A stretch of 64,000 bases of DNA from Steroidobacteraceae bacterium (GTDB lineage: Bacteria; Pseudomonadota; Gammaproteobacteria; Steroidobacterales; Steroidobacteraceae), in contig DAITAA010000007.1 of assembly GCA_036824505.1 (NCBI GenBank), forward strand, positions 6,677-70,676, given 5' to 3'. Shown here piece after piece: positions 7,869-39,438 of this stretch. Positions within the stretch are counted from its first letter, which is position 1. Every line of letters starts with the position of its first letter. The position numbers were made by a program, and so were the translations under genes. The notes beneath the pieces were generated by a model. The model was given only the letters and a program-made list of their open reading frames with translations. It made no database searches and was not told where the DNA came from.

Positions 7869-7895
7869 ATGCAGCTATTATCCCGTACGGTCGGA

Positions 7896-7909
7896 TGTAT
7901 ACGTATGCA
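7896..7909. promoter_or_regulatory. Candidate LacI-type operator TGTATACGTATGCA (13/14 palindrome, central CG)
   Basis: It lies in the 115-nt divergent region between GH97 and the TBDR. It shares the 11-mer ATACGTATGCA with the site at 14754..14767. Confidence 0.35.
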
Positions 7910-7983
7910 GTGTATTGCGGCCGCAACTACCGCTGCCTAACATCATCGGAATCCGGGGACCGAATTCATCTAAGGGGGATCCA

Positions 7984-20222: not shown

Positions 20223-20241
20223 GCTGCTCCCGGAAAGGAAT

Positions 20242-21441
20242 TCATGCCTCCAATACTCGCCGCGGCAGCAGGCGGGCCAGCAGTGCCGGAGCGCCCGTGG
20301 CACGCAGATGCGGATGATCCGCGAGAAAGCTGCGTCGCGCGCTCGCCGCCGTGTGCGACTCGTCGCCGGGCGCCCAGCCCGGCGGCATCACAAGGTAAGC
20401 GAGCCGCTCGCGCCAGCCGCGCGCGCTGCGCACGTCGCGCGCCAGCAACAGCAGCTCGCCGAAGTAGAAATCGACGAAGCTGGTGACATTGATGTCGCGC
20501 GTGATGCCGTATTCGATTTTCACTTCATCGCGCAGCGGCTGCAATGTGCCGAACATCCAATCCCAGAACGGCAGCAGCGTGCAGAAGTTGGTGTCCATGT
20601 AGAGCGGGTTGCGGGCGTGATGAACCCGATGGTAGGACGGCGTGATGATGAAATAGCGCGCCGGGCCGAAGCGGCCCGTGCGAAACGAGCGTTCACCGGC
20701 GTGGATGAAGGTTCCCCAGGTAACCTCGAAGGCCATGATCACGACCAGCATGGCAGGCTCAACGCCGAGCAGCATCAACAGCGGCGCCTGCACCAGCGCG
20801 GAGTAATAGCCTTCAGCGAAGAAGTGCACCCAGGCCACCGTCATGTTCAGATTCTGGGGAGCGTGGTGTGGTGAGTGCAGGCACCACAGCAGGCGCACCT
20901 TGTGCGCGCCGTAGTGCCAGATCCAGGTGGACAGCTCCCACATCAGCAGGGCATAGAGCCATCCGTACCAGTGGTAGCCGACTCGAAACAGTGCAAATGG
21001 CTGGAAGTAAGGCAACAGCAACCAGAACACATCGATGACGATCAGCCGCGGCAGCAGGCCGAGCAGCAGTCCGGTAAAAAAGGTGGGCTGGTATTCGAGC
21101 GCCGTCGCCCGAAACAGCCGCGCCGCCATGCCCGGGCCGCGCCCCTGGGCGCGCTCCTCGCGGGCCAGCACGATGAGGAAACGCAACAACTCCCACAACG
21201 TGAGCAGTGAAATCAGCAGTCCCACCACTGCCAGCACACTGTCGTGGTAATGCCCGTCATTGAAAGGCTTGAGCAGGTCGGTGATGAAACCCTGGCCCGC
21301 TGCCGTCGTTTGCGCATAGTGCACGAGGCCGGCGGCGAGACCCCAGGTGGTGTAGACGAACACGCCGGCGAATAGCAATGCTTCGAGATGCCGCCATAAC
21401 GGCGGCGTGTGGCGCCACGCCGGAACATCACGCTGTGTCAT
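20242..21441 (-). CDS. Fatty acid hydroxylase / sterol desaturase family membrane di-iron oxygenase
   Basis: 399 aa and polytopic. Three His boxes: HYGAH, HSPHH, HRVHH. ATGA overlap with the upstream GH16 stop. Confidence 0.8.
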   Translation of the reverse strand: MTQRDVPAWRHTPPLWRHLEALLFAGVFVYTTWGLAAGLVHYAQTTAAGQGFITDLLKPFNDGHYHDSVLAVVGLLISLLTLWELLRFLIVLAREERAQGRGPGMAARLFRATALEYQPTFFTGLLLGLLPRLIVIDVFWLLLPYFQPFALFRVGYHWYGWLYALLMWELSTWIWHYGAHKVRLLWCLHSPHHAPQNLNMTVAWVHFFAEGYYSALVQAPLLMLLGVEPAMLVVIMAFEVTWGTFIHAGERSFRTGRFGPARYFIITPSYHRVHHARNPLYMDTNFCTLLPFWDWMFGTLQPLRDEVKIEYGITRDINVTSFVDFYFGELLLLARDVRSARGWRERLAYLVMPPGWAPGDESHTAASARRSFLADHPHLRATGAPALLARLLPRRVLEA

Positions 21442-22775
21442 CTGATGCGCGCGAATTCGACCGCGTCGATGTGGACCGCTCCCGACTCGTCAAAGACCTG
21501 GCCGAAGGCCAGCGACAGCCGGGCCTCGACCGCTCCGGCCGGGGCCACCGCTTCCAGTTCGTAGTCGTGCCAGGCATCGGTCGGCGTCGTCCCGTCGGCA
21601 ATCGCCCGCTCCTGGAATCCGAGCATTGCCGGGCCGCCGAAGTAGTCGCCCCAGTGGTTGTAGAACTCAATCTTCATCGTGGCGTGGTCTTGTGAGCCGG
21701 CCAGATCCTCTGCCGAACGCACGAACGCCGAGAGCCTGGCACGAACCCGCTCGCCGCCGGCGACGCTGATGCTTTGAGTCACGCCGGAATAATTTACCTC
21801 GCCAATCGCCTGACCGGAAATCTTCAATGCGTAAGTGCCATCGCGCACCACCTGCCGATGCACGAGCACATTCGGTTTGTCGTCGATGCGATTGCCGAAG
21901 ATGTGCCAGCCGGCCAGCGAGCCGCCGTGCTCGTCGAAACCGCCGTTGCGAAACGTGCGGCTGCCCGGTTCGTCGGTGAGCTCGTAGACGCGGACCCAAT
22001 CCACGAGCATTCGCTGCGGCCAGGCCGTCGTTTCGTTCGGCGGCGGCAGGAAGTCGCCGCCGATCGCCGTATCGATGATCAGTCGCATCGGCACGGTGAG
22101 TTTCGGCAGGAAGTATCCGACTTCGTCGTTGTAGAAAGTGCCGTGGTGGATGTCATCCACGTAGAACCGGAGCTGGTTCTCGACCCATTCGCAGGCGAAC
22201 GTGTGAAATCCGTCGGCGTAAGCGACGAGTTGGTCGGCGATCGCCGCTTGATGCTCGACCGCGAACGAATCCTGCGAAGCGGGATCATGCGTCGCCCAGC
22301 GGAATGCGCTCGACACGACCGTGGGCCGATCGCCGCGATGCTCCAGGATGTCGATCTCGCCCGCGGTCGGCCGCGGTGCGTCGGGCAGCAGCCGGATCGC
22401 GGGCCACAAGCCCCTCGAACCGGGCAGCCGGGCTCGCACTTCCCAGCGGCCGAACCGCTGTGCGCGCCGGCTGACGATCCGGCCCGAGCGATAAGGCAGG
22501 GCGCGCGACGGCTCGTTCTCGGACAGGATCTCCAGCTTGCCGTCCATGACGCGGATCTGTTCCGGCCGATAGTCCTGCAGCGAGGTATTCGTCGGCCGGC
22601 TGTCGTCGATCACATCCCATTTGTCGCGATCGAGCGTGTCGAAGTTGTCGCTCCACGCCAGGTGCCACTTGGGCGGCGGAACAACGACCGACTCCGCTTC
22701 ATCCGCGCCGATCGCCTGCGCCGCGCCCCACAGCAGCAGGCCAAGGGAGGCAAGGCCGGAACATGATCGCGCCAT
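21438..22775 (-). CDS. Secreted GH16 glucanase with C-terminal CBM4/9-like module
   Basis: 445 aa with a signal peptide. W.D.FD.LD..KW, catalytic EIDILE, then ..FRNGGFDEHGGSLAGWHIFGN.. typical of CBM_4_9. Confidence 0.8.
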   Translation of the reverse strand: MARSCSGLASLGLLLWGAAQAIGADEAESVVVPPPKWHLAWSDNFDTLDRDKWDVIDDSRPTNTSLQDYRPEQIRVMDGKLEILSENEPSRALPYRSGRIVSRRAQRFGRWEVRARLPGSRGLWPAIRLLPDAPRPTAGEIDILEHRGDRPTVVSSAFRWATHDPASQDSFAVEHQAAIADQLVAYADGFHTFACEWVENQLRFYVDDIHHGTFYNDEVGYFLPKLTVPMRLIIDTAIGGDFLPPPNETTAWPQRMLVDWVRVYELTDEPGSRTFRNGGFDEHGGSLAGWHIFGNRIDDKPNVLVHRQVVRDGTYALKISGQAIGEVNYSGVTQSISVAGGERVRARLSAFVRSAEDLAGSQDHATMKIEFYNHWGDYFGGPAMLGFQERAIADGTTPTDAWHDYELEAVAPAGAVEARLSLAFGQVFDESGAVHIDAVEFARIR

Positions 22776-25276
22776 CAGCGCCAGCGCACCACGATTTCCG
22801 GCGCATCGTCGATTTCGAGCGTCGCCTGCGGCTTCATCGGCTCCATCTGCCGCAGGCGCTCGAGGTACTGCTTGTCGTAATAGACGTCGCTCAGGGCTTC
22901 CAGAGGATCGAGCATGCGAACGACGCGCGATTGCACGGCAGCCGCCACCCCATTGACGGTCGCCCCGGTGACCGCATCGAAGCCATGCAGGATCACCTGG
23001 ATCCTGCGAAACGGCGAGGAATAGTTTCCGTCAGGGCGCGAGAAGCTGAGCTGCCTCGTGGCCGGATCGAACGCGATGAGCCGCCTGCGGAATTGCCCCT
23101 TGCGGTAGTCCAGCGTTTCACCGTCATCGTCGTAGTAAACGAATTCGCTCCGCTCGGCGCCGTTGAACAGGTGCACGGTGAGCACCGGTCCGGGATCGTC
23201 CCGGGTCGATTGCACCTTTCGCTGCATGGGAATGATTGCGGAAGCCTTCGCGAAGATCGGGATCCTGTGGCCCGCATACTCCGAGCGGATGACGCGACCG
23301 CCATCGAGCCGTTCGTCGGTGAAGAGATCAAACCATTGCCCGGCGGGCAGGTACGTGGACTTCTCCTGCTCCTTGCTGGTCATGGGATTCACCAGGAGCC
23401 CCGGACCGAACAGAAATTCGTACTGAAAGTCCGGCTTGAATACGTTGGCGTCGAAGGAATGGTCGATGCTCAAGCTGCGGCTCACGGGCATGCCGGTCTG
23501 AGTGGCTTCGTAGAACGCCGAATAGAGATAAGGCATCAGTTGGTACCGGAATCCGATATAGGCCTTCGAAATCGCCTCGACTTCCTCGCCGTAGGCCCAG
23601 GGCTCGTTGGCGGCGGTGAACTGCCCGCGATGATTGCGCAGATACGGGGCGAAGACGCCGACTTCGACCCAGCGACGGAACAGGTCCTTGTTGCCATCGC
23701 CGATATAGCCGCCGAGGTCGGGACCGGTGAACGGCACGCCGGACAATCCCATCTGGTTGACGAGCAGGGCGCCGAGCAGGATGTGCTCGTCCTTGGCCTG
23801 ATTGTCGCCGCTCCACACCGCGGCGTAGCGCTGGATGCCTGCGAATCCCGAACGGCTTAGAACGAAGGGTCGCCGGTTGCCGCCATATTGCTCGGCCGAT
23901 TCGAACGCGGCGCGCGCCATCAGCATGCCGTAGTAGTTCTGCGCTTCGAGCGCCGAGGTCTTCTGGCCGTCGAAATTGAACACCACGTTGTCCGGCATGG
24001 CCTGGCCGTCGATTGCAGGTTCGTTCATGTCGTTCCACAAGCCGTGGATCCCGAGATCCTGGTAAAGCTTCATATTGTCGATCCACCAGCGCCGCCCGCG
24101 CGGATCGGAAAAATCCACGAAGTGATTGGTGTTGGGCGCGATGTCCGCGACCCACAGCTCGCCGTCAGCGTAGCGCAGGAACACGTTCTCCTTCAGACCG
24201 CTCTTGTATTGTTCGTACGTGTCGTCGATGGCAATGCCGGGATTGACCGAGGCAGTGAGTTCGACGTTCATGCCGCGCAGGGTATCGGCGAGGCGCCGCA
24301 TGTCCGGGAAGCGCTCGCGATTGATGCGAAACGGCTGGTATCGGTGCAGGTAGTCGGCATCGAGTGTGATTCCGTCCAGAGGAATCCGCTTGGCGCGAAA
24401 TGTGTTGGCGATGAACATCACCTGTTCTTCCGGATAGTAGCTGCAGCGCGACTGCTGATAGCCGAGGCTCCAGCGCGGCGGCAGCGGCATCCTTCCGGTG
24501 AGCGAGGTGTAGTGCTCCAGGATCTTGCTAACCGACGCATCGAAAATGAAGAACTGGTCCAGAGAGCCGCCGTCGAAGCTAAAGGACGCGAAGCGGCGAT
24601 TGGACGCGCCGAAGTTGAATACGGATCGAAAGGAATTGTTGAAGAAGAGTCCATAGGCCTTGCCGTCATGCAGCCCCATGAAAAACGGAATGCTCACGTA
24701 CATCGGAACCTTGGGATCGTCGTACCGATAGTTGTCCGTGTTCTTGAGCGTAAGAACGGTCCCGCGCCGGTCGAGATTGCCGAGCTGCTCGCCCATGCCG
24801 ATGAAGCGCTCGTCGCTCTGCAGCCGCTTGTACACGGTGATCTTGTCGCCGACGAGCGTCATGCCGAGCTCTTTGCCGGGCAGATCCTCGTTGATGACGT
24901 TGCCGTTTGCATCCTTGAACGTGATGCGCAGGTCGGGGCGTAGCTCCACCTCGGCCGCGATGCTCAAAGTCTTGAGCACGACGACGGGGCCGGCGGCGCT
25001 GACGCTGAACTGCGAAAAATCGGGCGGCTCGTCCGTGGTCAGGGCATAGCCGACGTGTCGCGGCGACCCCAGAGGCGTCACGCGCACCCGGATAATGTGA
25101 GGTGAATACGCATCGACTGAGAATTCGGCCATGGCGGTTCGCCCGGCGATGCCGTGCGCAGTTTTCTCATACGACTGCACGGCGCCAAGATTGGCGGCGC
25201 GCGCTGCGGGAGCGAGGCTGCCCAGCATCAGAAGGCTGACGCTGGCCACCCGGATGAACGCTCGAATTGCCGTCAT
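22775..25276 (-). CDS. GH31 alpha-glucosidase (or alpha-xylosidase-type), secreted
   Basis: 833 aa with a signal peptide. The GH31 nucleophile block is GLWNDMNEP and the acid/base region is RSGFAGIQRYAAVWSGDN. Confidence 0.85.
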   Translation of the reverse strand: MTAIRAFIRVASVSLLMLGSLAPAARAANLGAVQSYEKTAHGIAGRTAMAEFSVDAYSPHIIRVRVTPLGSPRHVGYALTTDEPPDFSQFSVSAAGPVVVLKTLSIAAEVELRPDLRITFKDANGNVINEDLPGKELGMTLVGDKITVYKRLQSDERFIGMGEQLGNLDRRGTVLTLKNTDNYRYDDPKVPMYVSIPFFMGLHDGKAYGLFFNNSFRSVFNFGASNRRFASFSFDGGSLDQFFIFDASVSKILEHYTSLTGRMPLPPRWSLGYQQSRCSYYPEEQVMFIANTFRAKRIPLDGITLDADYLHRYQPFRINRERFPDMRRLADTLRGMNVELTASVNPGIAIDDTYEQYKSGLKENVFLRYADGELWVADIAPNTNHFVDFSDPRGRRWWIDNMKLYQDLGIHGLWNDMNEPAIDGQAMPDNVVFNFDGQKTSALEAQNYYGMLMARAAFESAEQYGGNRRPFVLSRSGFAGIQRYAAVWSGDNQAKDEHILLGALLVNQMGLSGVPFTGPDLGGYIGDGNKDLFRRWVEVGVFAPYLRNHRGQFTAANEPWAYGEEVEAISKAYIGFRYQLMPYLYSAFYEATQTGMPVSRSLSIDHSFDANVFKPDFQYEFLFGPGLLVNPMTSKEQEKSTYLPAGQWFDLFTDERLDGGRVIRSEYAGHRIPIFAKASAIIPMQRKVQSTRDDPGPVLTVHLFNGAERSEFVYYDDDGETLDYRKGQFRRRLIAFDPATRQLSFSRPDGNYSSPFRRIQVILHGFDAVTGATVNGVAAAVQSRVVRMLDPLEALSDVYYDKQYLERLRQMEPMKPQATLEIDDAPEIVVRWR

Positions 25277-25848
25277 TTCCGCTCGCCGCCGCGGAAGGTC
25301 ATTCGCTGCAGCGTCGGCACACGGTCAAACCACTGGTGCTTGAACGCGCCAATCAGGTGCGCCGCGAGCAGGGCGTAAAACAGGTAGCTCAGCCATTCGT
25401 GCACGGTGTGGGCCAACTCGTCGAGCGCCTTTTTCGGCTCCGGCGCCATGTTTGCCACCCAGGCGATCCGCGGCATCTCGAAGAGCCCGAAAACGTTGAT
25501 CGGGACATCGGCAGCATATTCCCACGCCGAATCGTAGATCCACCCCGAGAGCGGCATCGCCAGGATCATGAAATACAGGGCGGCATGGCCTGTGCGCGCG
25601 GCGACGACCTGCCAACGGGGTATCGCCGGGCTGAACGGAGGAGGGCGATGCCCGATCCGCCACAGGAGCCTCATCAGCGCGAGACCCAGCACCGTAATGC
25701 CGAAGGTCTTGTGCGTGTCGGTGACGGATTGCGTCCACGAGTAATCCGGCCAAATCTTGAACGTCCATGCCAGGACCATATTGGCGATGACCAGGACGGC
25801 AATGACCCAGTGGAAAATAATCGCCGTTCGCGTGTAGCGATCGCTCAC
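25273..25848 (-). CDS. Cytochrome b561 family (CybB-like) membrane di-heme protein
   Basis: GTG start at 25848 (VSDRYTRTAIIFHWVIAVLV...), overlapping the PhyH stop as GTGA. It has four TM segments with conserved His (HW.., H.T.G, H..LY, H....HL). The 407-aa ORF in the track is an out-of-gene extension. Confidence 0.75.
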   Translation of the reverse strand: MSDRYTRTAIIFHWVIAVLVIANMVLAWTFKIWPDYSWTQSVTDTHKTFGITVLGLALMRLLWRIGHRPPPFSPAIPRWQVVAARTGHAALYFMILAMPLSGWIYDSAWEYAADVPINVFGLFEMPRIAWVANMAPEPKKALDELAHTVHEWLSYLFYALLAAHLIGAFKHQWFDRVPTLQRMTFRGGERK

Positions 25849-26684
25849 CGCGGCAGATTCCGCGCAGTCGTGTCGCGCTCTTCGGCAAGCCAGACGTCGC
25901 TCGCCTCGTCGCCGATGAAGCGCCGCGATCCGTACTCGCGAATGCGGCTGTCCGGAACCTTGACGAGCGGCGTATAGCGAGGATGCTGCGATTCCTTGTA
26001 AGGGTCGTTGCGCGCGGCGTTGTAGCTGCAGATCATCGACCAGCGCGGGTGCTTCGACTTGTTCTGATCCGACCGGTGTAGCGTATTGCAATGGAAGAAG
26101 AGGACGTCGCCCGGTTCCATGTCGACGTGCACGAGCTCCAGGCGCTTGAGGACTTCCTTCACTCGTTCCATATCCGCGCCGGCCTGTTCGCCGGTGAGGG
26201 CGTGATCGAGACGACCCAGCTGATGCGAGCCGCGCACCACCTGCAGACAGCCGTTCTCGCGCGTGGCGCGGTCGACCGCGATGAAGGCGCTGGCCATCCA
26301 CGGATTGAGGACGCCGTTGTGATACCAGTAGCCGTAGTCCTGGTGCCAGGTCCACGCGCCTCCGATCAGCGGGTCTTTCATGATCATCTTCGAGTGATAG
26401 TGGTAGACCTCGCCGCCCAGGAGTTTTTCCATTGAGCCGACGATCGACTCCGAGCGCGCGATCATGCCGTAGATCGTGTCGGTAGGATGGTTCCACAGTG
26501 ACAGGCGCACTGTACCGCCTTCGCCGTCCGCCCGGCCGAAGGAATGCTGGTCGAGCACGCGGTCGGCGCGCGCCGCGCGCCCGAGCAGGTCGACCTCGAC
26601 GGCGTCGAGCATGCCGCGTACCAGCACAAAGCCGTCAGCGTTGAACGCGCCGACTTCCGCATCGCCGATCGGTCCCCTGGCCAT
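25845..26684 (-). CDS. Phytanoyl-CoA dioxygenase (PhyH) family Fe(II)/2-oxoglutarate oxygenase
   Basis: 279 aa. WHQDYGYW (HxD), ATRENGCLQVVRGSH, and FFHCNTLHRS (distal His). A GAGGAGAAG RBS lies upstream. Confidence 0.8.
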   Translation of the reverse strand: MARGPIGDAEVGAFNADGFVLVRGMLDAVEVDLLGRAARADRVLDQHSFGRADGEGGTVRLSLWNHPTDTIYGMIARSESIVGSMEKLLGGEVYHYHSKMIMKDPLIGGAWTWHQDYGYWYHNGVLNPWMASAFIAVDRATRENGCLQVVRGSHQLGRLDHALTGEQAGADMERVKEVLKRLELVHVDMEPGDVLFFHCNTLHRSDQNKSKHPRWSMICSYNAARNDPYKESQHPRYTPLVKVPDSRIREYGSRRFIGDEASDVWLAEERDTTARNLPR

Positions 26685-26699
26685 TGGCTTCTCCTCGCC

Positions 26700-28058
26700 T
26701 CAGATCCGTGTCTGGCGGCGCAGCGTCCGCGCCGGCACCGGCGTTTCCGACCAGTACTTCTCGATCTCCTCCAGCGTCCGGTTCCTGGTTTCCGGCACGT
26801 ACTTCCAGGTAAATAGCGCCTGCGCCAGCGAAAACGCGGCCAGGATCGCGAAAGTCGGCGCCTGCCCCAGCCGATGCAATGCCGCGGGGAACAACAGGAC
26901 CACCACGGCGTTCGCCACCCACTGTGTCAGCACCGGCACGATCATCGCCGTGCCGCGGATGCGGGTCGGCAGGATTTCCGGCACCAGCGTCCAGAATACC
27001 GGACCGATGCACGAGCAGAAGAAAATCAGATATCCAAGGATCAGGATGAGAGCCAATGGACCCTTGAAATGTCCGAGCAACACGGCGATGGTCAGCGCGG
27101 AGAGCATCGCGGCCATCCCCAGCGATCCGACGATGTACAAAGGGCGGCGGCCGTAGCGATCGATCGTCCAGAAGGCCACCAGTGTGAACGCGAAGTTGGT
27201 GAGGCCCACGACGAACGTCGAAAGCAGGGCCGCATCCATCTGCCATCCCGCCGACAGGAAGATGACGGGCGCATAGTCGATGACGGTATTGATGCCGGAG
27301 AAGTGAATCAGAATGGCGAGCCAGAAGCCGACGAACACCGCGCGGCGCACGCCCGGCTGGAAAACTTCCCTCCACGAGTGATGGGTGGTCGCCGGCGCCG
27401 AAGCGCTGGCCAGTGAAACCTCGTACTGCGAGTCTCCGAGTTTCTCCATGACGGCGCGCGCCACGTCGGGGCGTCCTGCCATGAAGAGGAACCGCGGCGT
27501 CTCGGGGGCACGCAACAACAATCCGAAAAAAATCACGGACGGGATCACGCCCGTGCCGAACATCCAGCGCCAGTTGTCCGGACCGATGTCGTGCAGCAGA
27601 TAGTTGATGCAATAGGACACCAGAATGCCCGTGACGATGGACATCTGATAGAGCGCGCCCAACCTCCCGCGCACGGCCGCTGGTGCGACTTCCGCGATGT
27701 ACATCGGCGAGACCAGCGACACTCCACCAACGGCGAGGCCACCGATGAATCGCGCGGCGAGAAAGCTCGGAAAATCCCAGGCAATGGCCGTCGCGACCGA
27801 GGTCAACGCGAACAGCATTGCAATCCACAGCAGAACGTAACGGCGGCCGTAGCGATCGCTCAATCGACCGGCAATGGCGGCACCGATAGCGCAGCCGAAC
27901 AGCAGCGAGCTGAACGCCACCCCCAACCCAAAATCACCGAGCTCGAAATGCCGGGCCAGAAACGGGCCCGCGCCGCTGATGATGGCCACGTCGAATCCAA
28001 ACAGCAGGCCACCGGTTGCGGCTGTGCAGGCGAGAAACAGGACGTAGCGGAGGTTCAT
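26700..28058 (-). CDS. MFS sugar porter family transporter
   Basis: 452 aa with 12 TM segments. [18 protein letters not shown] and [12 protein letters not shown] are sugar-porter signatures. Confidence 0.85.
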
Positions 28059-30310
28059 GGCTGCTTACCGGTCTCTACGGCGAGCTTTTTCAGCATCTCA
28101 CCGATCTCGGGATTCGACATGAACGCGCGCCACAGCAGGCCGGAGCGATGGTTCTCGACCATGGCGACGATCGGTGCCTGGTTGAGGCCCATGTAGTGAT
28201 AGGCGAGCCAGTCCTGGCTCGGGTTGTAGTTGTCGCGCGGGCCGTAGATGCCCCAGAGCTCGGCGCCGAGCTCGCGGTAAAAGTGCTTGAAGGCGGCCAT
28301 CGACGCTTCGGGCGTGAACGGGAACGACGCCAGCGCCCCGGTCAGCGTGATCGTGCCGTCGTCGTTCCACTGGTCGGGTGCGGGCGTCGTGTAGCCGTTC
28401 CAGCCGAAGCTCGCCGTCAATCCCCAAGCGTCCGGGCCGTAGCCCTTGAAGCCCTTGGGGTTCGCGATGCAATACGCGCGATTGATGGCGGCGATGCTGC
28501 GGCTATTGTCGAAGTAGGACGCAGTGTAACGGTCGCGCAACTGGCGCGGATCGAATCCCATGAAGATGTAGTGGATGAAGAACAGCGGACCGCCGGTGCT
28601 GACGCCGACGTCGAGCTTGATCCCGTAATAGCTGTTGCCGTTGGCATAGAGCCGGCCGTCCGGGCTGCCCGACCAGCCCTGCCGGTAATCCTGCGCGCGC
28701 TGCTCCTGGCTCGCCCAGCCGCTGTAGTACATGGATGCCGGCACCGGATGCGTGGGCGATGCGATCGCGAACAGATAGGTCGGGACCGTCTCGTTGAATC
28801 CGATCAGCGGGTGCTGGATCCGGTGACCCCACTGTGGCGACCAGTGCCAGTACAGATACGGACTGTCAGGCGACATCCGGAACCAGTCCCATTCCACGGC
28901 TTCCCAGAGCGCCGTGATGCGATCGCGCAGCGACTGCTCGCGCTTCTCCTTGCGGTCGAAATAGCCGCGCGCCGTGAGCAGGCCCTGGATCACGTACGAT
29001 GTCTCGATGATGTCGCCGCCGTTGTCGTACATGCCGAAGAGCGGCATGGTCTCGCCGGTCTCGTCGTTGTAGTAATGCGACCAGGCGCCGTGGAAGCGCG
29101 GCGCGCGCTCGAGGAACGACAGGAGTTTTTCGAGCCGCCCGAGGCCCTGGTCGCGCGTGATGAACTGGCGGTGGACCGCCGCCACGAGGGCGCTGATGCC
29201 GAGCCCAGTCGCGCCCGTCGCGACGATGCGGTCGTCTCCCGGAAGGTTCTCGTGGGCCATGCCGGTATTGGCGCCTGAAGCTTCCCAGTAATAGCGGAAT
29301 GCCGCTTCCTGCAGCATGTCGAGCAGCTCCTCGTCGCTCAGCTCGCGCGTCGCCGCCGTGACGACGGCCGACGGCCCCGATTCGCGTCCCTCCCAGTCGG
29401 CAGCCGCGACGCGGTAGCTCGCCTTCGCGCCCGAACGGCCGATGAAGTCGGCGTAGCGATTGACGCCCGGCCGCTGCGTGCCGACCGGCAGAAACGGACC
29501 GCCGTCGATCGAGCGGGAAACAACGTAATAGGCGGCGGCGTTTTCCGCGGGCGCCTGCCATTGCACGTCGATGTGGCGGTCGAAGCCCTTCGCCGATACG
29601 CCGTCCGGTACCGGCAGCGTCGCGGCGGCGGCCGCCGGCTCGTCGTCGATCCGGATGTCGTCGACGATCAGCACGCGCTTCTTTCCGTCCGCGCGCCGCT
29701 GGTGGAAGATGACGCTTTGCAGGCGCTCGGAGCGGAACTGGTATACCGAGGCTGAGCGGAGCTTCTCGAACGGAATGCGGACCGGAACCCATTTTCCCGC
29801 AGGCAGGTCGCCCGTGTAGGTCGCGAGCGGTTCCTCGACGGTGAAGCTGCCCGGCATCGTCGCCACCTGGAGGCCGCCGCGCGCATCGGACAGCACCACG
29901 TTGGGCAGGTCATCGGCCGCGATGGCTTCCGGCGAATAGACCCAGAAAAAAAGCGTCCCCCCGGCGAAATCCGGAAATCGGTTCGGGAAGCTGACGAATT
30001 GAATCTGTGCGTCCCAGCTGCCGCCGGGCGCCGACTGCCATTCGATGCGGATGGCGTTCGGCGGCGTGCGGAAATGCTTCGCTTCCACGGGCAGGCGCCA
30101 ACCGACCGAGCGGAGCTCGCTCGGCGCGGTCTTTGCCGCGCTGCTCTGGAAGTACACCTCGCGCTGGAGGCTGTTGTCGAAGAACACGTGGCGGTAGTAA
30201 TCCGATTGCGCCGCGGCAGGATCGACGCAAAAGCTGGCCATGAGAAGGAGAATTCCCGACACTCGAATATTCATCCGCATGCTTTGGCTCCGTACCGCTA
30301 GCCGCTTCAT
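28055..30310 (-). CDS. Secreted multidomain 'glucoamylase family' (PF10091 / GH144-like beta-glucanase) protein with N-terminal CBM-like and Fn3-like modules
   Basis: 751 aa. The core ..[74 protein letters not shown].. matches my memory of the PF10091 family block (RFHGAW.H..N..TG......DDGGD.VET). The family assignment needs an HMM search. Confidence 0.6.
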
Positions 30311-31908
30311 GGCCGGTATCCGCCGGCCGTGAGGGCGGGTCCGAGCGTTGCGACGTGTGGCGCGAGCTCCCTCGCGAAATGCCGCCAGCGCCCGACCGAG
30401 CGGTCATTGACCTTCTCCGCGACGCGCGCGTAGCTCGGTGTCGGCGCATAGCGCCGGTTCTCATGAAAGTGCAGGCACGCATCCTCGAAGGGCAGGCCGA
30501 CGTGCGCAAGCAGGCGGCGCGTCTCCGCTTCCGGGTCCGCCACGAACAGCTCGTATTGCAGCACGTACGCCGTGCGCCCGAATTCGCGCTGGTAGCCCGC
30601 GATCAACGTGTCGGTTGCCGCCAGATGATGCACGATGTCCTCGATCCGGAACGCGCAATGGAATCCATGCGAAAGGTTGTTCGATAGCATCGAGACGGCG
30701 ACATCGCGTGGGTCGCGCTTCACCAGGACGAGCTTCGCTTCCGGGAAGGCCATGAGCAGGAGCGGCAGGTTGATCTCGTTAAACGGCGTCTTGTCGGTGA
30801 ACAAGCGCGCGCCCGGGCCGGTGAGGCCCGCAGTCTCCGCGCGCGCGAAGTAGTGGTCGCGTAGAACCGCGGCAAGATGCCGCTCGTCCGCCGCTGCGGT
30901 CGAGTCGAGGCAGCCGGGGAAGTCCCCCCCGTGCGGGCACAGGCGCTGCGCCACGGCGCGCAGCTCGCTGAGCCATGCGTGTTCGCCTCCCGCGCGCACG
31001 GCACTGTGTGCTGAGAGCACCTGCTCAATCAGAGTCGTGCCGGAGCGCGGCGCCCCCAGGATAAAGACCGGCTGCGGCACGTCGCCGCGCGTGGTCGCGC
31101 GCGGCATCCGCGCCATCGTCGTGGCGCTGAAGTATTCGCGCAACGCGCGGTAGAGAGCCGCGACGCCCGCGGCGTCGTAGGCAAGGCCGCCCAGCTCGGC
31201 CGCGAGCTTGCGCTTGCCTTCGACGTAGTCGGCCCAGGCCTCGACATGACGGCCGACGCGCTCGTAGAGTCGCCCCCGCTCGAGTTGCCCTTCACCGTTG
31301 ATGTTGCGGGCCGCCTCGATGATCGCGAGTGCCTCGGCGTCGCGCCCGGTCCGGGCGAGGTATTGCACGCGCAGCAGGTTGATTGCCTCGGCGGAGGACG
31401 CCGCCTGCGCGGCGTCGAGGAGCCGCTCCGCGCCAGCGAAGTCACCCTGCACCTCCCGGAGCTTCGACCAGTGCGCGAGGATCCGGAAGGTCCGCGGCGC
31501 GAGCCGGTCCGCCTCCGTAAAGGCCGCCTCCGATTCGGCGGTGCGTCCCTGCTGCATCAAGTTGAGTGCGAGGTTCGCAAGCGGCCCCGCGTTCGTCCCA
31601 CCGGTCTCGAGCGCACGCCTGAAGTGCCATTCGCCCGCCGGAAGGTCGTTTTCCACGGACAGCAGGGTACCCAACTGGTCGTGCGCAGCCGCATTGTCGG
31701 GATTCGCGACGATGGCGCGGCGCGCGACGACGAGCGCATCCGCGCGCCCGCCGTGATTCGCCAGCAGGGAGATGAGATTGACGAAGGCCCAGTCAGCGCG
31801 GCGATCGATTTCAATGATGCCGGTCAGTACCTTTGCGGCACCCGCCACGTCCCCGCGCGCAATCGCCTCGCGCACCGCCGCAGGTGTCGGTTCAATTAAC
31901 TTGGACAT
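30307..31908 (-). CDS. TPR-repeat protein fused to a PAPS-dependent sulfotransferase domain
   Basis: The start is taken at ATG 31908 (MSKLIEP...). The longer listed ORF runs antisense-overlapping into GH3. The N-terminal ~300 aa are TPR-like. The C-terminal domain has the 5'-PSB loop GAPRSGTTL and the 3'-PB motif [10 protein letters not shown]. Confidence 0.75.
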
Positions 31909-34135
31909 CGCGAATGTCGACCTCCTGCACCAGGGGCAGTATCCGCGACGATGCGCCGACGTGCATACGATAGCGCCCGGCAGGGTGGCGCCACTCGCTT
32001 GCGCTCGTGTCCCAGACTCGAAGAGCGTAGGGATCCGCTGCGATCCGAACGCGACGCCGCTCGCCGGGCGCCAGCTCCACGCGAACCCAGCCCGCCAGCC
32101 GCTTCGCGGGTTCGCCGGCCGCCGGCGGAAACTCAACATACAACTGCGCGACTTCCACGCCCGCGCGCTTTCCGGTGTTGGTCAGGTCGAAAGTCACCGA
32201 GAGATCCGGATCCACCGCGAGGTTCGCATACGCGAAGGTCGTGTAGGAGAGCCCGAAGCCGAACTCGTATGCCGGGACCTTGTTTCGCGAGACGTACCAT
32301 CGGTAGCCGACCGCCAGCCCTTCGTCCAGCGCGACGACCGGGGATCGCGCCGGAACAGAATCAGGCTTCATGGGGTCGGCCTGCGGCTCGGGCGGGTAGG
32401 GGCGCGGCAGGTCCGCCTCGGCGCGCGGAAAGCTGATCGGCAGCCGGCCGGAGGGATCGACGCGGCCGAACAGGATGGCGGCGATCGCCTCCGCGCCGCG
32501 ATTGCCCGGATACCAGGCTTCGAGGATGGCGCCAGCCTGCGCCGCCCAGGGCGTCAGCACCGCACCGCCGGTCTGCAGGACGACGACGGTCCGGGGATTG
32601 GCGGCCGCTACTTTCCGGATCAGCTCGTCCTGACCGGCCGGCAGCGACAGGTTGGAAAGGTCCTTGCCTTCCGTGCGTGCCTGCCAGGCGAAGACGATTG
32701 CCACGTCGGCGGATGCCGCGAGGCGCGCTGCCGCCTCGACATCTTCACCGGATGCGAACGTCACATCCGCCGAGGGCGACTCGGCTTCGATCGCCGTCAC
32801 CGGCGACGAGTGATGCCAGACGGTGCTGGCGAACTGGACCAGCTCGGCCGCGGTGCCGGGCGGCGTATCGTCGATCGTGACGCCGCCGATCGACTCGACG
32901 CAGGACGAGCCGCCGCCGGCCAGCACGCCCACATCGGCGCGACGGCCGATCACTGCGATCTTTCCGGCGGAATCCGCCCGCAGCGGCAGCAGACCGTCGC
33001 GGTTCTGGAGGAGGACGATGCCGCTTTCGGCCACTCGCCGCGCGACGGCGAGTCCGGCTGTCGTATCGACGGGCCTCACGGCCTCCTGCCGGTCCAGTGC
33101 ACCGACCGAGGCGAGGCCGCGCAGGATGCGGCGGGCCATGTCGTTGACGCGCGATTCGGAGACCTCTCCTTTCTCCACTGCTGTCTTCAGCGCGCCCGCG
33201 AAGTAGCGCTCCTGGTAGAACTCCTGGTCGAGTCCGGCTTGCGCCGACTGCACGGTGCTGTGGGTTGCGCCCCAGTCGGACATGACCCAGCCCTTGAAGC
33301 CCCATTCGGTTTTCAGGATGCCGTCGAGGAGCCGGGCGTTCTCGCAGGCGTAGACGCCGTTCACCTTGTTGTAGGCGCACATGACGCTGCCGGCGCCCGA
33401 TTCCTTCACGGCGATCTCGAACGGCAAGAGGTCGATCTCGCGCAGCGCCCGCTCGTCGACGACCATGTCGACGGTATGGCGGTTCGTCTCCTGCGTGTTG
33501 GCGACGAGGTGCTTGACGGTGGATACGACGCCCTGCGACTGGATGCCGCGCAGCTGCGCCGTCACCAGGCGCCCTGCCAGGACCGGGTCTTCGCCCAGGT
33601 ACTCGAAGTTGCGGCCGTTCCAGGCGTCGCGCTCGACGTTGGCGCCGCCGGCGAGCAGCACGTTGAACCCGCGGTCGCGGGCCTCGCGGCCCATGATTCG
33701 CCCGCTTTCGAACGCGAGCTCCGGGTCGAAGCTCGCGGCCAGTGCCTGCGCGGAAGGGAAGGCCGTCGCGCGGCCGTCCGCACCGCCGGAGATGTTCCTC
33801 ACGCCGAGGGGTCCGTCGTTCAGCTGCAGCGCGGGGATGCCGAGGCGCGGCAGCGGCGCGATGAAGCCGGCTCCGCCTCCCGCTCCGGCCGGCGTCGGCT
33901 GCCCCGCGTAGGCAAACCCGAGCGGTCCGTGGAGCAGGTGAATCTTCTCGTCCAGCGTCATCTGCCGGACGAGCGCCAGGGCGCGCTGGTCCGGGTCCGG
34001 GCTCTCGTCACGCGGGACCTCACTTGCCTGCACGGTCAGGACCATCGCAGCGGAAACAGCCAGGCCGCCTGCGACGCAGAGGAGGTACGGGGCCGCACCG
34101 GCCCAGCGCCTGGGCGCATGGCCGGCGGGACCCAT
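31892..34135 (-). CDS. GH3 beta-glucosidase, secreted/periplasmic
   Basis: 747 aa. MTLDEKI..L, GFKGWVMSDWGA (GH3 nucleophile block SDW), and a C-terminal Fn3-like domain (FGFGLSYTTF). Confidence 0.85.
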   Translation of the reverse strand: MGPAGHAPRRWAGAAPYLLCVAGGLAVSAAMVLTVQASEVPRDESPDPDQRALALVRQMTLDEKIHLLHGPLGFAYAGQPTPAGAGGGAGFIAPLPRLGIPALQLNDGPLGVRNISGGADGRATAFPSAQALAASFDPELAFESGRIMGREARDRGFNVLLAGGANVERDAWNGRNFEYLGEDPVLAGRLVTAQLRGIQSQGVVSTVKHLVANTQETNRHTVDMVVDERALREIDLLPFEIAVKESGAGSVMCAYNKVNGVYACENARLLDGILKTEWGFKGWVMSDWGATHSTVQSAQAGLDQEFYQERYFAGALKTAVEKGEVSESRVNDMARRILRGLASVGALDRQEAVRPVDTTAGLAVARRVAESGIVLLQNRDGLLPLRADSAGKIAVIGRRADVGVLAGGGSSCVESIGGVTIDDTPPGTAAELVQFASTVWHHSSPVTAIEAESPSADVTFASGEDVEAAARLAASADVAIVFAWQARTEGKDLSNLSLPAGQDELIRKVAAANPRTVVVLQTGGAVLTPWAAQAGAILEAWYPGNRGAEAIAAILFGRVDPSGRLPISFPRAEADLPRPYPPEPQADPMKPDSVPARSPVVALDEGLAVGYRWYVSRNKVPAYEFGFGLSYTTFAYANLAVDPDLSVTFDLTNTGKRAGVEVAQLYVEFPPAAGEPAKRLAGWVRVELAPGERRRVRIAADPYALRVWDTSASEWRHPAGRYRMHVGASSRILPLVQEVDIRDVQVN

Positions 34136-34172
34136 CGCTCAGCTGCGGAACTTCATGTCGGCGCGTACCCCG

Positions 34173-37100
34173 CTACCACTTGAAGTTCAGGCTCAGCTTG
34201 AAGGTGCGCGGCACGCCCGAGATGTCCCCGTCCTTGAAGTAGTCCGGCGGCCCTGGGAACGTGTTGATGAACTGGACGTAGTTCTTGTGATTCGTGACAT
34301 TGAGCGCGTCGAGGCGGACCTGGATCGCCGACCCGTTGCCGAACTCGAATGACTTCGTCAGCTGCAGGTCGAGCGCCATGTAGCCGATGTCGTCCTTCGG
34401 AAACTGCGAGAGCTTGAAGTAGTTGTAGTTGAGGCCGTTCGGCGGATCGGTTCGTCCGGGCGAGGTGCCGATGCCGTTGAACCCGGTGTTCGCTTTTGGC
34501 GATTCGATGACGAACTTGGCTCCCCCCAGCATTCCCCAGGGCAAGTCCATGGTGCCGATCGCGACCAGGCGGTTCTTCGCAACCTGGTCCGAGAGCACGT
34601 ACAGCGAGTAGTACGGAGAGGCGTATTGGAACTGGTAGTCGCCGGGAAAGTCGCGAACCTTGGCCCACGTGTACGTGTACGCAATGCTTGCGGACCAGGG
34701 CGATTCACTGCTGTAGGGTTTGTCGGCGGAGATCAGGAGCTGCGTGCTCCGGGTCGCCTCGGCGTTGTCGAAGAGGTAAAGCCCGCCGCCGCCGGCGTTC
34801 GGGACTGGTGCTTGAAAGGCGGCGTAATCAAACGTGTCATACCAGTACCAGGTTCCGTCACCAAAGCGGTTACCGTTGCTTGCGATCACGCCTTTGTAGC
34901 TCTTGATGTATGCCAATGCGACGCTCGTGTTCCAGTCAGCCACCCGGTTGCGCATGCCGAGCGTGAACTGGTCGGAATAGGGAGTCTCGAGATTGTTGTT
35001 GATGAAGTGCATCTCGCCGAAGTTGCCCGGGGCGATTGACGCCAGCCCTTCCGGCGTCAGGTAGGCGTCGTTCCACTCGATGCACTGGGGGCTGGCGTCC
35101 ACCGGGCCTTCGCAGCCCGGATTGTTCGCGTTCCAGAACTGGGTCGTCGGTGTGTACAGCGTCGCCTTGTTGCTCTCGAGCTGCAGGATGCTGAACGTAT
35201 TGCGGTCGTAGCTGCGGGCGGCGCCGCCGAAGATCACGTGCGCCTGGTCGGCGAAGAGGTCGTAGGAAAAGCCGAACCGCGGCGCGATCTGGTCCGTGGG
35301 ATTGCTGCGATTGTGGCCGTTGCTGATGTAGTCGTTGATGTCGATGCCGCCATTAGCCAGCGATTCGGCGTACGTCTGGCCGGGTACGTGGCAACTGGGG
35401 GTGTTGACGGGGCAGGCGTTGGTATCGAGGGCGAAGATCGCGTCCACGAAGCGCTGCGGCGTGACGTAATCCGTGTACGTCGGCGTCTCTTCGTAGTCGT
35501 AACGCACGCCGATGTTCAGCACCAGCTTGTCGTTGACCACCCAGTCGTCCTGGAGGTAGATGCCGTATTGCTTGTTCTTCGAGATCGCGGTCGCGTTGAT
35601 GGTGGGGTCAGCCTGTGCGCCGAAGAGCACCTCGAAGGGATCCGCCTCGACGCCATTGTCGGGGATGGCGGGATCGACAAAGAACGTATAGAGCGCTTCG
35701 GTCGAGGCATCGCTCATCTGCAGCTCGACGTCCTTGAACTTGACGCCCGTCTTGATCGTGTGCTCGCCATGCCAGCTGAAGTCGGTGAACGTGATGTCGT
35801 CCTGGAGGGAGTAGCCGCTCTGTGCCGCGAAGAAGTAACCCAGGGGGTCGACGCCGTCGACCTGCAGGATGATGTCGAAACCCGTGCCCCGGGTCCCCAG
35901 GGCCCGGTACCTCTTGCCCGGCTCGCTGCCCGCCTTCGACGGTGAGTCCTCCGTGTCCTCGTAGGTGACGGTCGCTTCGTTGAAATAGCGCTCGCCGGAG
36001 TGCTCCCAGCGCAGCGCCAGTCGCTTGTCGTCGTTGACGTAGGTCGTCGCCGCGGACTCGGCAACCACGCCGGCGGCGCCGGTCTGCTGCCGCTCCTCGC
36101 GGGACTTGGCCGACAGCTCGAGGCGATCGGAGTAGCCGAGTTCCCAGTCCAGCTTGACGAAGATCAGATCCTCGTCGAACGGATTCGCCACCGGGCCGTA
36201 GTTCTCCCGAAGCTCCGGCGTCAGCGCGCCAACCCAGTCGAGCGCGACGTTGTTGTCGTCGACCAGATTCTGCGGCGCCTGCACGGTGTTGGGTGTCGTG
36301 AAATCCTTGCGCTCGTATGTGACGAAAAAGTGCATCTTGTCCTTGATGATCGGACCGCCGAGCGAAAAGCCGTACTCCTGGCTGTCGCCGCCCTCCTTGC
36401 CAGTACCGGCGAACTCCTCGGCCGGGGTCTTCTCCCGCAGGCTTGCGTCCGTATACGTCATGAACGCGGAGGCCTCGAATTCGTTCGTTCCCGACTTGGT
36501 GACGGCCGTGATCGCAGCGCCGGAGACCTGGTCGTACTCGGCCTTGTAGTTCGACGTGATGACTTTATATTCGGCGATCGCGAGCTGCGGGAAAGGGTTG
36601 CCGGAGGAGCCCACCGTACTCTGGTTCGCACCAGACCTCGGGTTGGAATCGACGCCGGCTTGCCCGCTCGCTCCGCTCGGACGCACGTAGTTCTTCTGCC
36701 CGACGCCGTCGATGTAGACGTTGGTGGTACCCGTATTGAGGGCGCCGCTGCGGATCTGGTTTCTGCCCTTGGCGTCTACCGAAAACTGCATGCCGGGCAC
36801 TGCGTCGGCGAACTCGAGGAAGTTGCGCGTGATCTGGGGCGAAACCTCGATCTGGCGCAGCGAGATGCCGCTGCCGACTTCCGAAGTCCTGACCTCGCGC
36901 AGTCTTGCGCCGCTGACTCTCACTTCGCCGAGTGCGGTGGCCTGCGCCGCATCGAAATCCAGTGTGGCGGTGGAGGCGACGCCGAGGCTGACAACGTACT
37001 CGCTGCCTCCGCCCGTGACCCGGTAGGTGCCGGGCGGCAGGCCGACGAGCACGTAGTTGCCGTCGCTGCCCGACTGGACGCTGCGAGTCAGTCCGGTCTC

Positions 37101-37274
37101 GGTGTTGGTTGCCTTGACTTCAGTGCTGGCTGGCGCCTTGCCGCGCAGGGCCGCGCTCGCCGACTGTGCCGCGGCTTGTTGCGGAAGTGCGCTCGACAGC
37201 AGGATCGCACTGATCGCCGTCGCAAGGCGCCAATCACGCCGGGCCGCCGTCTTCATCTTTGTGCTAGTGTTCAT
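34173..37274 (-). CDS. TonB-dependent receptor, Oar-like (N-terminal carboxypeptidase-regulatory-like domain)
   Basis: ATG at 37274 is preceded by AAGGGA. Signal peptide ..LPQQAAAQS, then TGLTRSVQSGSDGNYVLVGLPPGTYRV (CarboxypepD_reg), a long barrel and a terminal ..LSLNFKW. Confidence 0.85.
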   Translation of the reverse strand: MNTSTKMKTAARRDWRLATAISAILLSSALPQQAAAQSASAALRGKAPASTEVKATNTETGLTRSVQSGSDGNYVLVGLPPGTYRVTGGGSEYVVSLGVASTATLDFDAAQATALGEVRVSGARLREVRTSEVGSGISLRQIEVSPQITRNFLEFADAVPGMQFSVDAKGRNQIRSGALNTGTTNVYIDGVGQKNYVRPSGASGQAGVDSNPRSGANQSTVGSSGNPFPQLAIAEYKVITSNYKAEYDQVSGAAITAVTKSGTNEFEASAFMTYTDASLREKTPAEEFAGTGKEGGDSQEYGFSLGGPIIKDKMHFFVTYERKDFTTPNTVQAPQNLVDDNNVALDWVGALTPELRENYGPVANPFDEDLIFVKLDWELGYSDRLELSAKSREERQQTGAAGVVAESAATTYVNDDKRLALRWEHSGERYFNEATVTYEDTEDSPSKAGSEPGKRYRALGTRGTGFDIILQVDGVDPLGYFFAAQSGYSLQDDITFTDFSWHGEHTIKTGVKFKDVELQMSDASTEALYTFFVDPAIPDNGVEADPFEVLFGAQADPTINATAISKNKQYGIYLQDDWVVNDKLVLNIGVRYDYEETPTYTDYVTPQRFVDAIFALDTNACPVNTPSCHVPGQTYAESLANGGIDINDYISNGHNRSNPTDQIAPRFGFSYDLFADQAHVIFGGAARSYDRNTFSILQLESNKATLYTPTTQFWNANNPGCEGPVDASPQCIEWNDAYLTPEGLASIAPGNFGEMHFINNNLETPYSDQFTLGMRNRVADWNTSVALAYIKSYKGVIASNGNRFGDGTWYWYDTFDYAAFQAPVPNAGGGGLYLFDNAEATRSTQLLISADKPYSSESPWSASIAYTYTWAKVRDFPGDYQFQYASPYYSLYVLSDQVAKNRLVAIGTMDLPWGMLGGAKFVIESPKANTGFNGIGTSPGRTDPPNGLNYNYFKLSQFPKDDIGYMALDLQLTKSFEFGNGSAIQVRLDALNVTNHKNYVQFINTFPGPPDYFKDGDISGVPRTFKLSLNFKW

Positions 37275-37338
37275 GAAATTTCCCTTGCTCGTTGATTCCT
37301 GCAGCGCCGCCCTACGCCGGCGCAGCCCCAAGTCCACG

Positions 37339-39137: not shown

Positions 39138-39215
39138 TGCCCATCCGCCTTCTTCGAGGTGGTGATTCGACGACCAGGGCTCTGGCCCGGAATATAGGCG
39201 AGCCCTCGCGCCCTT

Positions 39216-39255
39216 GCAACCAGTAGCAACCATTGGGAACCAGTCGGAACCAGGG
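39216..39255. promoter_or_regulatory. Four tandem 10-bp repeats G(C/G)AACCAnnn (candidate operator array)
   Basis: GCAACCAGTA GCAACCATTG GGAACCAGTC GGAACCAGGG are contiguous, in the bicupin/GntR divergent region. Confidence 0.4.
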
Positions 39256-39405
39256 TCGATGGCGCGGCAGTCGCGCAGGCGAGGCGACGCGGGTACAGCG
39301 GTTTACAGCGCAGTTTGGGCGCGTTGCGCCCGTATGGCGTTGCCTCGTCGCAGGACACTCGGTAATCTGCGCGGGCGGACGCAGGCGGCGATGCTGCACC
39401 GCAAG

Positions 39406-39425
39406 ACAACCAAAGGCAACCAAGG
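39406..39425. promoter_or_regulatory. Two more tandem 10-bp repeats (ACAACCAAAG GCAACCAAGG)
   Basis: Same core (C)AACCA at the same 10-bp period, ending 13 nt upstream of the GntR start codon. Confidence 0.35.
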
Positions 39426-39438
39426 TGATCGGTCGACC

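Follow-up and report, generated by a model that had tools for sequence, protein, structure and literature searches.

A cytochrome b561 gene behind a conserved sugar porter and PhyH-family oxygenase in a glucan-utilization operon of Steroidobacteraceae

The window analyzed here, a stretch of 64,000 nucleotides (nt) of contig DAITAA010000007.1 from a Steroidobacteraceae bacterium (assembly GCA_036824505.1), contains a gene for a PhyH-family Fe(II)/2-oxoglutarate (2OG) oxygenase, here called PhyH, which is overlapped at its end by a gene for a CybB-type cytochrome b561. A first-pass annotation of the sequence took this tight coupling as the sign of a functional pair of oxygenase and heme protein. 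The comparison of the two genes with their relatives points away from such a pair: the b561 gene fits a single gain, no related b561 is found in 87 loci with PhyH orthologs, a spacer replaces the overlap in three relatives (L081, L083, and L085; loci are cited by our own numbers), the b561 gene is kept without the neighboring MFS sugar porter and PhyH genes in another three (L086, L180, and L181), and its closest relatives are paired with a family 2 glycosyltransferase (GT2) and have no oxygenase nearby. The idea that PhyH and b561 are a special redox pair is weakly supported. We consider it probable that the MFS porter and PhyH form the working unit, and that b561 is an accessory, quinone-linked membrane cytochrome that is co-expressed with O2-dependent iron enzymes and is not needed by PhyH.

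The PhyH and b561 genes and their junctions

The two genes and their immediate neighbors are all encoded on the minus strand:

28058..26700, minus strand: MFS sugar-porter family transporter, 452 amino acids (aa) (Pfam PF00083, E 5e-107)
26696..26691, minus strand: GAGGAG Shine-Dalgarno site, 6 nt upstream of the PhyH ATG (from the sequence)
26684..25845, minus strand: PhyH-family Fe(II)/2OG oxygenase, 279 aa (Pfam PF05721)
25845..25848, minus strand: GTGA overlap of the PhyH stop TGA (25847..25845) and the b561 start GTG (25848..25846) (from the sequence)
25848..25273, minus strand: CybB-type cytochrome b561, predicted di-heme, 191 aa, GTG start (Pfam PF01292)
25273..25276, minus strand: ATGA overlap of the b561 stop (25275..25273) and the GH31 ATG (25276..25274) (from the sequence)
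25276..22775, minus strand: alpha-glucosidase-like enzyme of family GH31, 833 aa, with a signal peptide (PF01055, E 7e-98; further GH31 domains on its flanks)

The first-pass annotation holds for the genes themselves. Pfam matches confirm the identities of PhyH and b561, the coordinates place the pair between the sugar porter and GH31, and both the GTG start inside the PhyH stop codon and the ATGA overlap with GH31 are present in the sequence. The sugar porter, which scores 349 bits and above the cut-off against NCBIfam TIGR00879, ends 15 nt before the PhyH ATG. The GH31 protein falls below the cut-off of the NCBIfam MalA-like model.

PhyH matches PF05721 with 124.5 bits (cut-off 22, E 9e-36) over profile positions 1-211 of 213. 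The HxD...H triad named in the first-pass annotation is intact and consists of H114 and D116 (WHQDYGYW) and H203 (CNTLHRS). These residues are invariant in 50 orthologs from several phyla, as is R214, which we take to be the basic residue for the C5 carboxylate of 2OG, and the alignment contains 61 invariant columns. The protein has no visible signal peptide and is cytoplasmic. In the b561-linked loci, PhyH is 79-92% identical to the window's protein, with a ratio of nonsynonymous to synonymous substitution rates (dN/dS) of about 0.09; the gene is intact and evolves under purifying selection. The subfamily is large, with at least 7,989 matches to PhyH at E below 1e-10, and has no characterized member.

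The AF2 model of PhyH (pLDDT 83.7) has a double-stranded beta-helix fold according to its Foldseek matches, the best of which are the proline hydroxylase H11 (7dzz, TM 0.76), GriE (5nci), and EctD (4mhr), with TM scores of 0.70-0.76 and E about 1e-18. The trans-3/4-proline hydroxylase H11 (7DZZ), the leucine hydroxylase GriE (5NCH), and EctD (4MHR) are also the best sequence matches (E 1e-22 to 1e-17), and like PhyH they are small soluble proteins with the same triad; they act on free small-molecule substrates. However, they are only about 25% identical to PhyH and belong to an amino-acid or osmolyte context rather than to sugar catabolism. While many PhyH homologs carry the JGI name EctD, for ectoine hydroxylase, the window's PhyH scores 72.5 bits against the ectoine-hydroxylase equivalog TIGR02408, which has a cut-off of 336.5, and no ectoine genes are found near it. 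A precedent for the oxidation of sugar moieties in the PhyH family and for the hydroxylation-driven cleavage of sugar ethers is provided by the 2'-O-methyl-ribonucleoside demethylases PHYHD1/FJS (PMC12709175) and by the orthosomycin oxygenases EvdO/AviO (4XAB, 4XAA). With E 3e-9 for PHYHD1 and 2e-5 for EvdO2, they are far more distant from the window's PhyH than the amino-acid hydroxylases and share no gene context with it; the likeness is one of reaction type by analogy and not of family membership.

The b561 protein matches PF01292 with 108.4 bits (cut-off 30.1, E 5e-31) over profile positions 1-177 of 179, and since the match begins at residue 4, the GTG start yields a complete b561 domain. 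A Pfam scan with E values of up to 0.01 gave only PF01292 and no match to the eukaryotic-type, ascorbate-dependent b561 family (PF03188). The protein is related to E. coli CybB (5oc0; phmmer E 5.5e-13), and His residues H13, H46, H88, H150, H164, and H171 are invariant in 45 homologs. The AF2 model (pLDDT 92.9), with helices at residues 7-32, 39-66, 78-107, and 136-174, superimposes on 5oc0 in Foldseek with TM scores of 0.79/0.86 and a root-mean-square deviation of 2.6 Å. The protein is thus predicted to be a four-helix membrane bundle with conserved His ligands for two b hemes. In ten related loci, b561 is 72-91% identical to the window's protein, but only 48% in L169, and the median pairwise dN/dS is 0.22. 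The reading frame is a real and intact gene under purifying selection. A search with b561 gave 267 matches at E below 1e-5, the best 120 of which are all at least 71% identical, and this subfamily too has no characterized member.

The GTGA overlap of PhyH and b561 is also present in L082, L087, L175, and L176, and takes the form TTGA in L084, such that a 4-nt overlap is found in six of the 10 loci, the window included. The overlapping relatives have GTG or TTG at the position of the window's b561 start. In L081, L083, and L085 (three of the 10 junctions) there is no overlap; a spacer of 30-60 nt with its own AGGAG or AAGGAAG Shine-Dalgarno site separates the two genes, and b561 starts four codons earlier. 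The junctions between the GH144-like and MFS genes and between b561 and GH31 are likewise 4-nt overlaps, and such an overlap is not special to the PhyH-b561 pair.

In the metagenome-assembled genome that contains L084, which is based on long reads, the GH144, MFS, sulfotransferase, and PhyH genes (3564-8001) are each in several pieces, with five in-frame stops in PhyH. These breaks are most likely assembly indels, and the L084 PhyH was therefore left out of the trees and the dN/dS estimates.

Gene neighborhoods and history of the pair

The first set of PhyH orthologs comprised 80 loci at 58-72% identity, examined for up to 8 kb on each side, 73 of which had at least 700 nt downstream. They are from Acidobacteriota, Planctomycetota, Verrucomicrobiota, Bacteroidota, Gemmatimonadota, Chloroflexota, and other phyla. 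No relative of the window's b561 was found in any of the 80 loci by tblastn, or by a subsequent re-scan with a profile HMM and Pfam. Nor is b561 present in seven closer relatives with MFS-PhyH at 74-80% identity (L171-L174 and L177-L179), which brings the loci without a related b561 to 87, at 58-80% identity in at least eight phyla. PhyH proteins have the same active-site residues whether or not a b561 gene adjoins theirs, which suggests that PhyH chemistry is independent of the cytochrome. The PhyH proteins of the b561 clade differ from their sisters at only about eight positions, none of them among 79 near-invariant residues, and these clade-specific substitutions are scattered, with no pattern of a surface remodeled after the b561 gain.

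The sole PF01292 gene in the 80 loci (L066, 10816-11523, minus strand) is 22% identical to the window's b561 and lies in convergent orientation 2 kb from a PhyH of 61% identity. No PF01292 gene was found at the corresponding position of the sister locus L069, and we judge the gene in L066 to be unrelated and its position a coincidence.

PhyH has the MFS sugar porter as its neighbor throughout the proteobacterial clade (15 of 15 members) and in six loci from Acidobacteriota. The two genes are a conserved unit, and their adjacency is the most conserved feature of the PhyH subfamily. It is through this adjacency that the link holds between PhyH and an imported sugar-derived molecule, on which the first-pass annotation had suggested that the pair acts. 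Recurrent neighbors of PhyH include Gfo/Idh/MocA oxidoreductases (35 loci), xylose-isomerase-like TIM barrels (24), and LacI (15), as well as MFS sugar porters, PQQ dehydrogenase with cytochrome c, ThuA, and 3-keto-disaccharide hydrolase, and GMC oxidoreductase and GH144-like genes are also among the sugar genes around MFS-PhyH. We found no account in the literature of PhyH alongside sugar genes of the MocA and TIM-barrel types, and nothing on PhyH in beta-1,2-glucan clusters.

The seven closer relatives without b561 have varied layouts: MFS-PhyH alone (L173, L174), ROK-MFS-PhyH-GH144 (L171, L178), PhyH-TIM-MFS (L172), and 3-keto-disaccharide hydrolase-MFS-PhyH beside a GMC oxidoreductase (L177, L179). 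In the last two, which are the closest of these loci (L177, 290-5840; L179, 466-5864), the PF06439 hydrolase precedes MFS-PhyH, and a divergent GMC oxidoreductase with a Gluconate_2-dh3 small subunit makes up a glucoside-3-dehydrogenase-like set. These genes hint that the PhyH substrate may come from an oxidative route of glycoside cleavage. A periplasmic GMC oxidoreductase was also considered as the electron donor of b561 and rejected: where GMC with Gluconate_2-dh3 adjoins MFS-PhyH, b561 is absent (L171, L177, and L179), and the window contains no such genes.

Immediately behind PhyH, at least 12 loci from Acidobacteriota, Planctomycetota, and one proteobacterium encode a conserved, divergent TIM-like protein of about 295 aa (for example L179, 5861-6742; L002, 8876-9763; L007, 8858-9733; L028, 8779-9681; and L064, 8855-9751). 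The copies share 47-77% identity with one another, and Pfam matches them only to the xylose-isomerase-like TIM barrel, below the threshold. Their slot is the one that b561 has in the window, and the L179 gene overlaps PhyH by 4 nt.

The PhyH-b561 adjacency is shared by 10 loci, the window included; the first-pass annotation had set its absence from all relatives as grounds for rejecting the pair. Eight of these relatives (L081-L085, L087, L175, and L176) have the layout GH144-MFS-PhyH-b561-GH31. The remaining one, L169, from a low-GC gammaproteobacterium, contains a stand-alone MFS-PhyH-b561 operon in which PhyH is 80% and b561 48% identical to the window's proteins. In the PhyH phylogeny, the proteins with a b561 neighbor form one clade, with support of 100/80 in a tree of 90 rows and of 82/71 with more sisters, and this clade is nested in a proteobacterial clade (100/99) in which MFS and PhyH are always adjacent. 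The corresponding b561 clade comprises 13 loci, 10 with and three without PhyH.

In the b561 phylogeny, the PhyH-linked proteins and 39 GT2-linked proteins together form a clade with 100/100 support, apart from the YceI-linked b561s. The GT2-linked proteins are the closest outgroup (42-53% identity), and all 39 adjoin a gene for a 507-aa PgaC-like membrane GT2, either in tandem or divergently. Their hosts include Paraburkholderia, Sphingomonas, Acetobacteraceae, Polaromonas, and others, and no PhyH, MFS porter, or glycoside hydrolase is found near any of the 39. A catalase gene is located upstream of b561 in 11 Paraburkholderia genomes, and no third gene is common to the GT2-b561 pairs. More distant relatives (27-41% identity) often adjoin YceI. 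Both trees fit a single insertion of b561 downstream of an existing MFS-PhyH, and thus a gain that happened once, in one gammaproteobacterial branch.

The pair of b561 and the 507-aa GT2, which resembles PgaC/IcaA, is conserved in some 40 members of the Alpha-, Beta-, and Gammaproteobacteria (L095-L132, L134, and L183), in tandem in the Burkholderiaceae and divergently elsewhere. In L131, for example, b561 is at 6001-6558 and GT2 at 6568-8091. We found no paper on this pair.

In three genomes MFS-PhyH has been deleted and b561 is intact. The L086 sequence is nested in the clade as sister to L085, and its b561 follows GH144 behind the same spacer with a Shine-Dalgarno site; only a 30-nt stub of GH31 remains after it. 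The b561 proteins of L180 and L181 are 90% identical to that of L169, with the same flanking genes, and dN/dS between L169 and these two is 0.08-0.09. The deletions have left scars (L181, 5717-6000; L180, 5879-6000), in which about 200 nt of the 5' end of MFS run directly into the final 60-110 nt of PhyH, with a blastn identity to L169 of 79-89% and the intact b561 directly downstream.

Explanations for the b561 gene

In the explanation that we favor, the periplasmic breakdown of a glucan by the GH144-like, GH3, GH31, and GH16 enzymes would release a small sugar-derived molecule, which would be imported into the cytoplasm by the MFS porter. There PhyH would oxidize it with O2 and 2OG by hydroxylation of a C-H bond, a substrate and a reaction that we infer, and this hydroxylation could also cleave an ether or another substituent. 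The role of PhyH as a cytoplasmic oxygenase of an imported sugar-derived molecule is suggested because the sugar porter is its conserved partner and the wider context is oxidative sugar catabolism. The b561 would connect the quinone pool with the periplasmic side of the membrane. Acquired in a single insertion right behind an MFS-PhyH module that was already there, it would be useful in its own right: as an accessory redox or antioxidant component, it would take up or supply electrons at the membrane, as CybB and LcoA do, and it would be co-expressed with the O2-activating iron enzymes of the operon. We propose that the GTGA overlap reflects operon compaction and not a specific stoichiometric complex.

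The CybB-type proteins that have been characterized are linked to quinones and have protective roles. CybB of E. coli is a reversible superoxide:quinone oxidoreductase with hemes at +48 and -23 mV (bioRxiv 10.1101/2021.12.23.473985). The window's b561 shares with it (5OC0) the PF01292 domain, the four-helix fold, five aligned His residues, and the predicted cytoplasmic location of both termini. However, the two proteins are only 27% identical, the window's protein scores 53.2 bits against the 170-bit cut-off of the CybB equivalog NF008566, and it is encoded in a glycan operon. Its periplasmic loop between TM3 and TM4 is about 11 residues longer than in CybB; all of the PhyH-linked and GT2-linked proteins have this extended loop of 36 residues, with the motif DSAW..P..FGLF..PR. 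A crude count of charges gives the periplasmic loops a net negative charge, of about -1 and -3.5, compared to about +1 and 0 in CybB, and the longer loop is net negative in the window's clade. The second model is LcoA of Burkholderia cenocepacia, a b561 that is paired with the YceI lipocalin BcnA and protects from lipid peroxidation (PMC9113575); also in Burkholderia, H2O2 and NaOCl each induce the expression of a b561 gene (PMC2830190). With LcoA, the likeness is that of a CybB-type b561 in an operon with a functional partner, and the relatives of the window's b561 that adjoin YceI are distant ones. In contrast, YceI adjoins b561 in none of the 13 clade loci and is not found beside any member of the subfamily, which branches apart from the YceI-linked b561s.

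Several points weigh against this explanation. A superoxide-oxidase role for b561 is an extrapolation, as the CybB equivalog score is far below the cut-off, and the positive patch at the periplasmic entry to the outer heme, which in CybB would attract superoxide, is not evidently conserved, given the net negative periplasmic loops in the crude charge count. Together with the longer loop, these differences make the exact role of b561 tentative. Furthermore, none of the 10 PhyH genes of the clade is without a b561 directly downstream, and the MFS-PhyH-b561 trio has been kept in two very different operon layouts, those of L169 and the window, despite a b561 identity of only 48%, which hints at some functional tie.

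Such a tie is the core of the first alternative, which we consider unlikely, namely that b561 is a dedicated redox partner. It would dock PhyH at the membrane and either re-reduce Fe(III) from uncoupled turnovers with electrons from quinol or gate the oxygenase, so that b561 would be the bacterial stand-in for ascorbate and the pair a two-component, membrane-tethered 2OG oxygenase. The invariable position of b561 behind PhyH in the 10 clade loci, six of them with the overlap, is consistent with this, as is the retention of the pair across deep divergence and in the stand-alone operon of L169. In the window's clade, b561 also has a more basic cytoplasmic loop and C-terminal tail, with charges of +3/+4 compared to +1/about +1 elsewhere by a crude charge count. 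However, 2OG oxygenases turn over without electrons from an external donor, and the 87 loci without b561 encode PhyH orthologs with the same active-site residues. Furthermore, b561 has outlived the deletion of PhyH in three genomes, and the sister subfamily of b561 has no oxygenase neighbor. We found no paper that links a PF01292 b561 with a 2OG oxygenase.

It is similarly doubtful that the whole b561 subfamily is a periplasmic electron conduit that serves an unrecognized glycan redox step, with a partner other than PhyH. The separation of the subfamily from the YceI-linked b561s and its shared periplasmic loop would agree with this, and so would its gene neighbors: the membrane GT2 beside all 39 outgroup b561s, and a GH144-like gene within about 5 kb of every b561 of the PhyH clade, including the three that lack PhyH. 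However, the operon has no gene for a periplasmic redox enzyme, GH144, GH3, GH31, and GH16 being hydrolases, the GT2-b561 pair has no common third gene, and the idea is purely contextual. A further reading, which seems to us equally improbable, is that of an undescribed, glycan-linked subfamily of CybB-like di-heme proteins, with the extended periplasmic loop and invariably next to a membrane GT2 or to the MFS-PhyH/GH144 module, that would supply or remove electrons for a redox step in glycan metabolism; in the window's lineage it was perhaps co-opted to keep a sugar-oxidizing 2OG oxygenase reduced by quinol, as a bacterial counterpart of the support that ascorbate and b561 give to eukaryotic oxygenases.

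Very unlikely is the last alternative, that b561 donates electrons to the membrane di-iron FA_hydroxylase of the operon (20242-21441), as cytochrome b5 does in eukaryotes. Eukaryotic enzymes of this family draw electrons from a b-type heme protein, and the two genes are in one operon in the window, L082, L199, and L220, but synteny does not support the idea. Six orthologs with at least 81% identity and 8 kb of visible upstream sequence lack b561 (L201, L203, L204, L206, L207, and L211), several of these b561-less orthologs have GH16 directly upstream, b561 being present only in L199 and L220, none of about 55 homologs at 40-55% identity has a b561, and there is no FA_hydroxylase within 5-8 kb of b561 in L083, L086, L169, L175, L176, L180, and L181. 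The conserved partner of FA_hydroxylase is GH16.

The surrounding operon and its meaning

The window has a G+C content of 64.5%, its nearest relatives are Steroidobacteraceae metagenome-assembled genomes, and the DNA runs trace the sequence to wetland and sediment metagenomes; no RNA run was found to contain the b561 gene. As read from the open reading frames and the sequence, 12 genes form a chain on the minus strand from a cupin gene to FA_hydroxylase (39233..20242), and this chain is a glucan-utilization operon. A scan of positions 20000-39600 for consensus promoters and terminators gave matches at chance level only, and the limits of the operon are not defined by it. The genes of the chain that flank those listed above are:

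39233..38292, minus strand: cupin protein
38295..37339, minus strand: ROK kinase
37337..34173, minus strand: TonB-dependent receptor
34135..31892, minus strand: GH3
32139..30307, minus strand: TPR-sulfotransferase
30310..28055, minus strand: GH144-like putative beta-1,2-glucanase, 751 aa (Pfam PF10091, E 5e-63)
22775..21438, minus strand: GH16
21441..20242, minus strand: membrane di-iron FA_hydroxylase, at the end of the operon (Pfam PF04116, E 5e-24)

The order GH16 then FA_hydroxylase (20242-22775 in the window) is a conserved pair in close relatives (L199-L213). Distant FA_hydroxylase homologs with about 52% identity (L216 and L217) are located beside GH144-like and GH31 genes and have neither PhyH nor b561 nearby, which suggests that FA_hydroxylase has its own link to glucan loci. 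A second PhyH-family gene in the window (43038-44018, plus strand; PF05721, E 8e-34) belongs to a neighboring ABC sugar operon, where it adjoins a gene for a Gfo/Idh/MocA dehydrogenase (44053-45156). It is not among the close relatives of the PhyH in the glucan operon.

The PhyH and b561 families are both known, and their arrangement with the MFS porter in a row of three genes is a lineage-limited variant. If b561 were a true partner of PhyH, which is unlikely, it would be the first membrane heme protein shown to serve a bacterial 2OG oxygenase, and a clue to how such enzymes stay reduced without ascorbate. The MFS-PhyH module and the b561-GT2 pair are better leads than the pairing of PhyH with b561. 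The module in particular stands, with PhyH proteins of 58-80% identity and 61 invariant residues from Acidobacteriota to Planctomycetota and Bacteroidota, and its position among sugar-oxidation genes points to an undescribed O2-dependent step in the breakdown of sugars by soil and aquatic bacteria.

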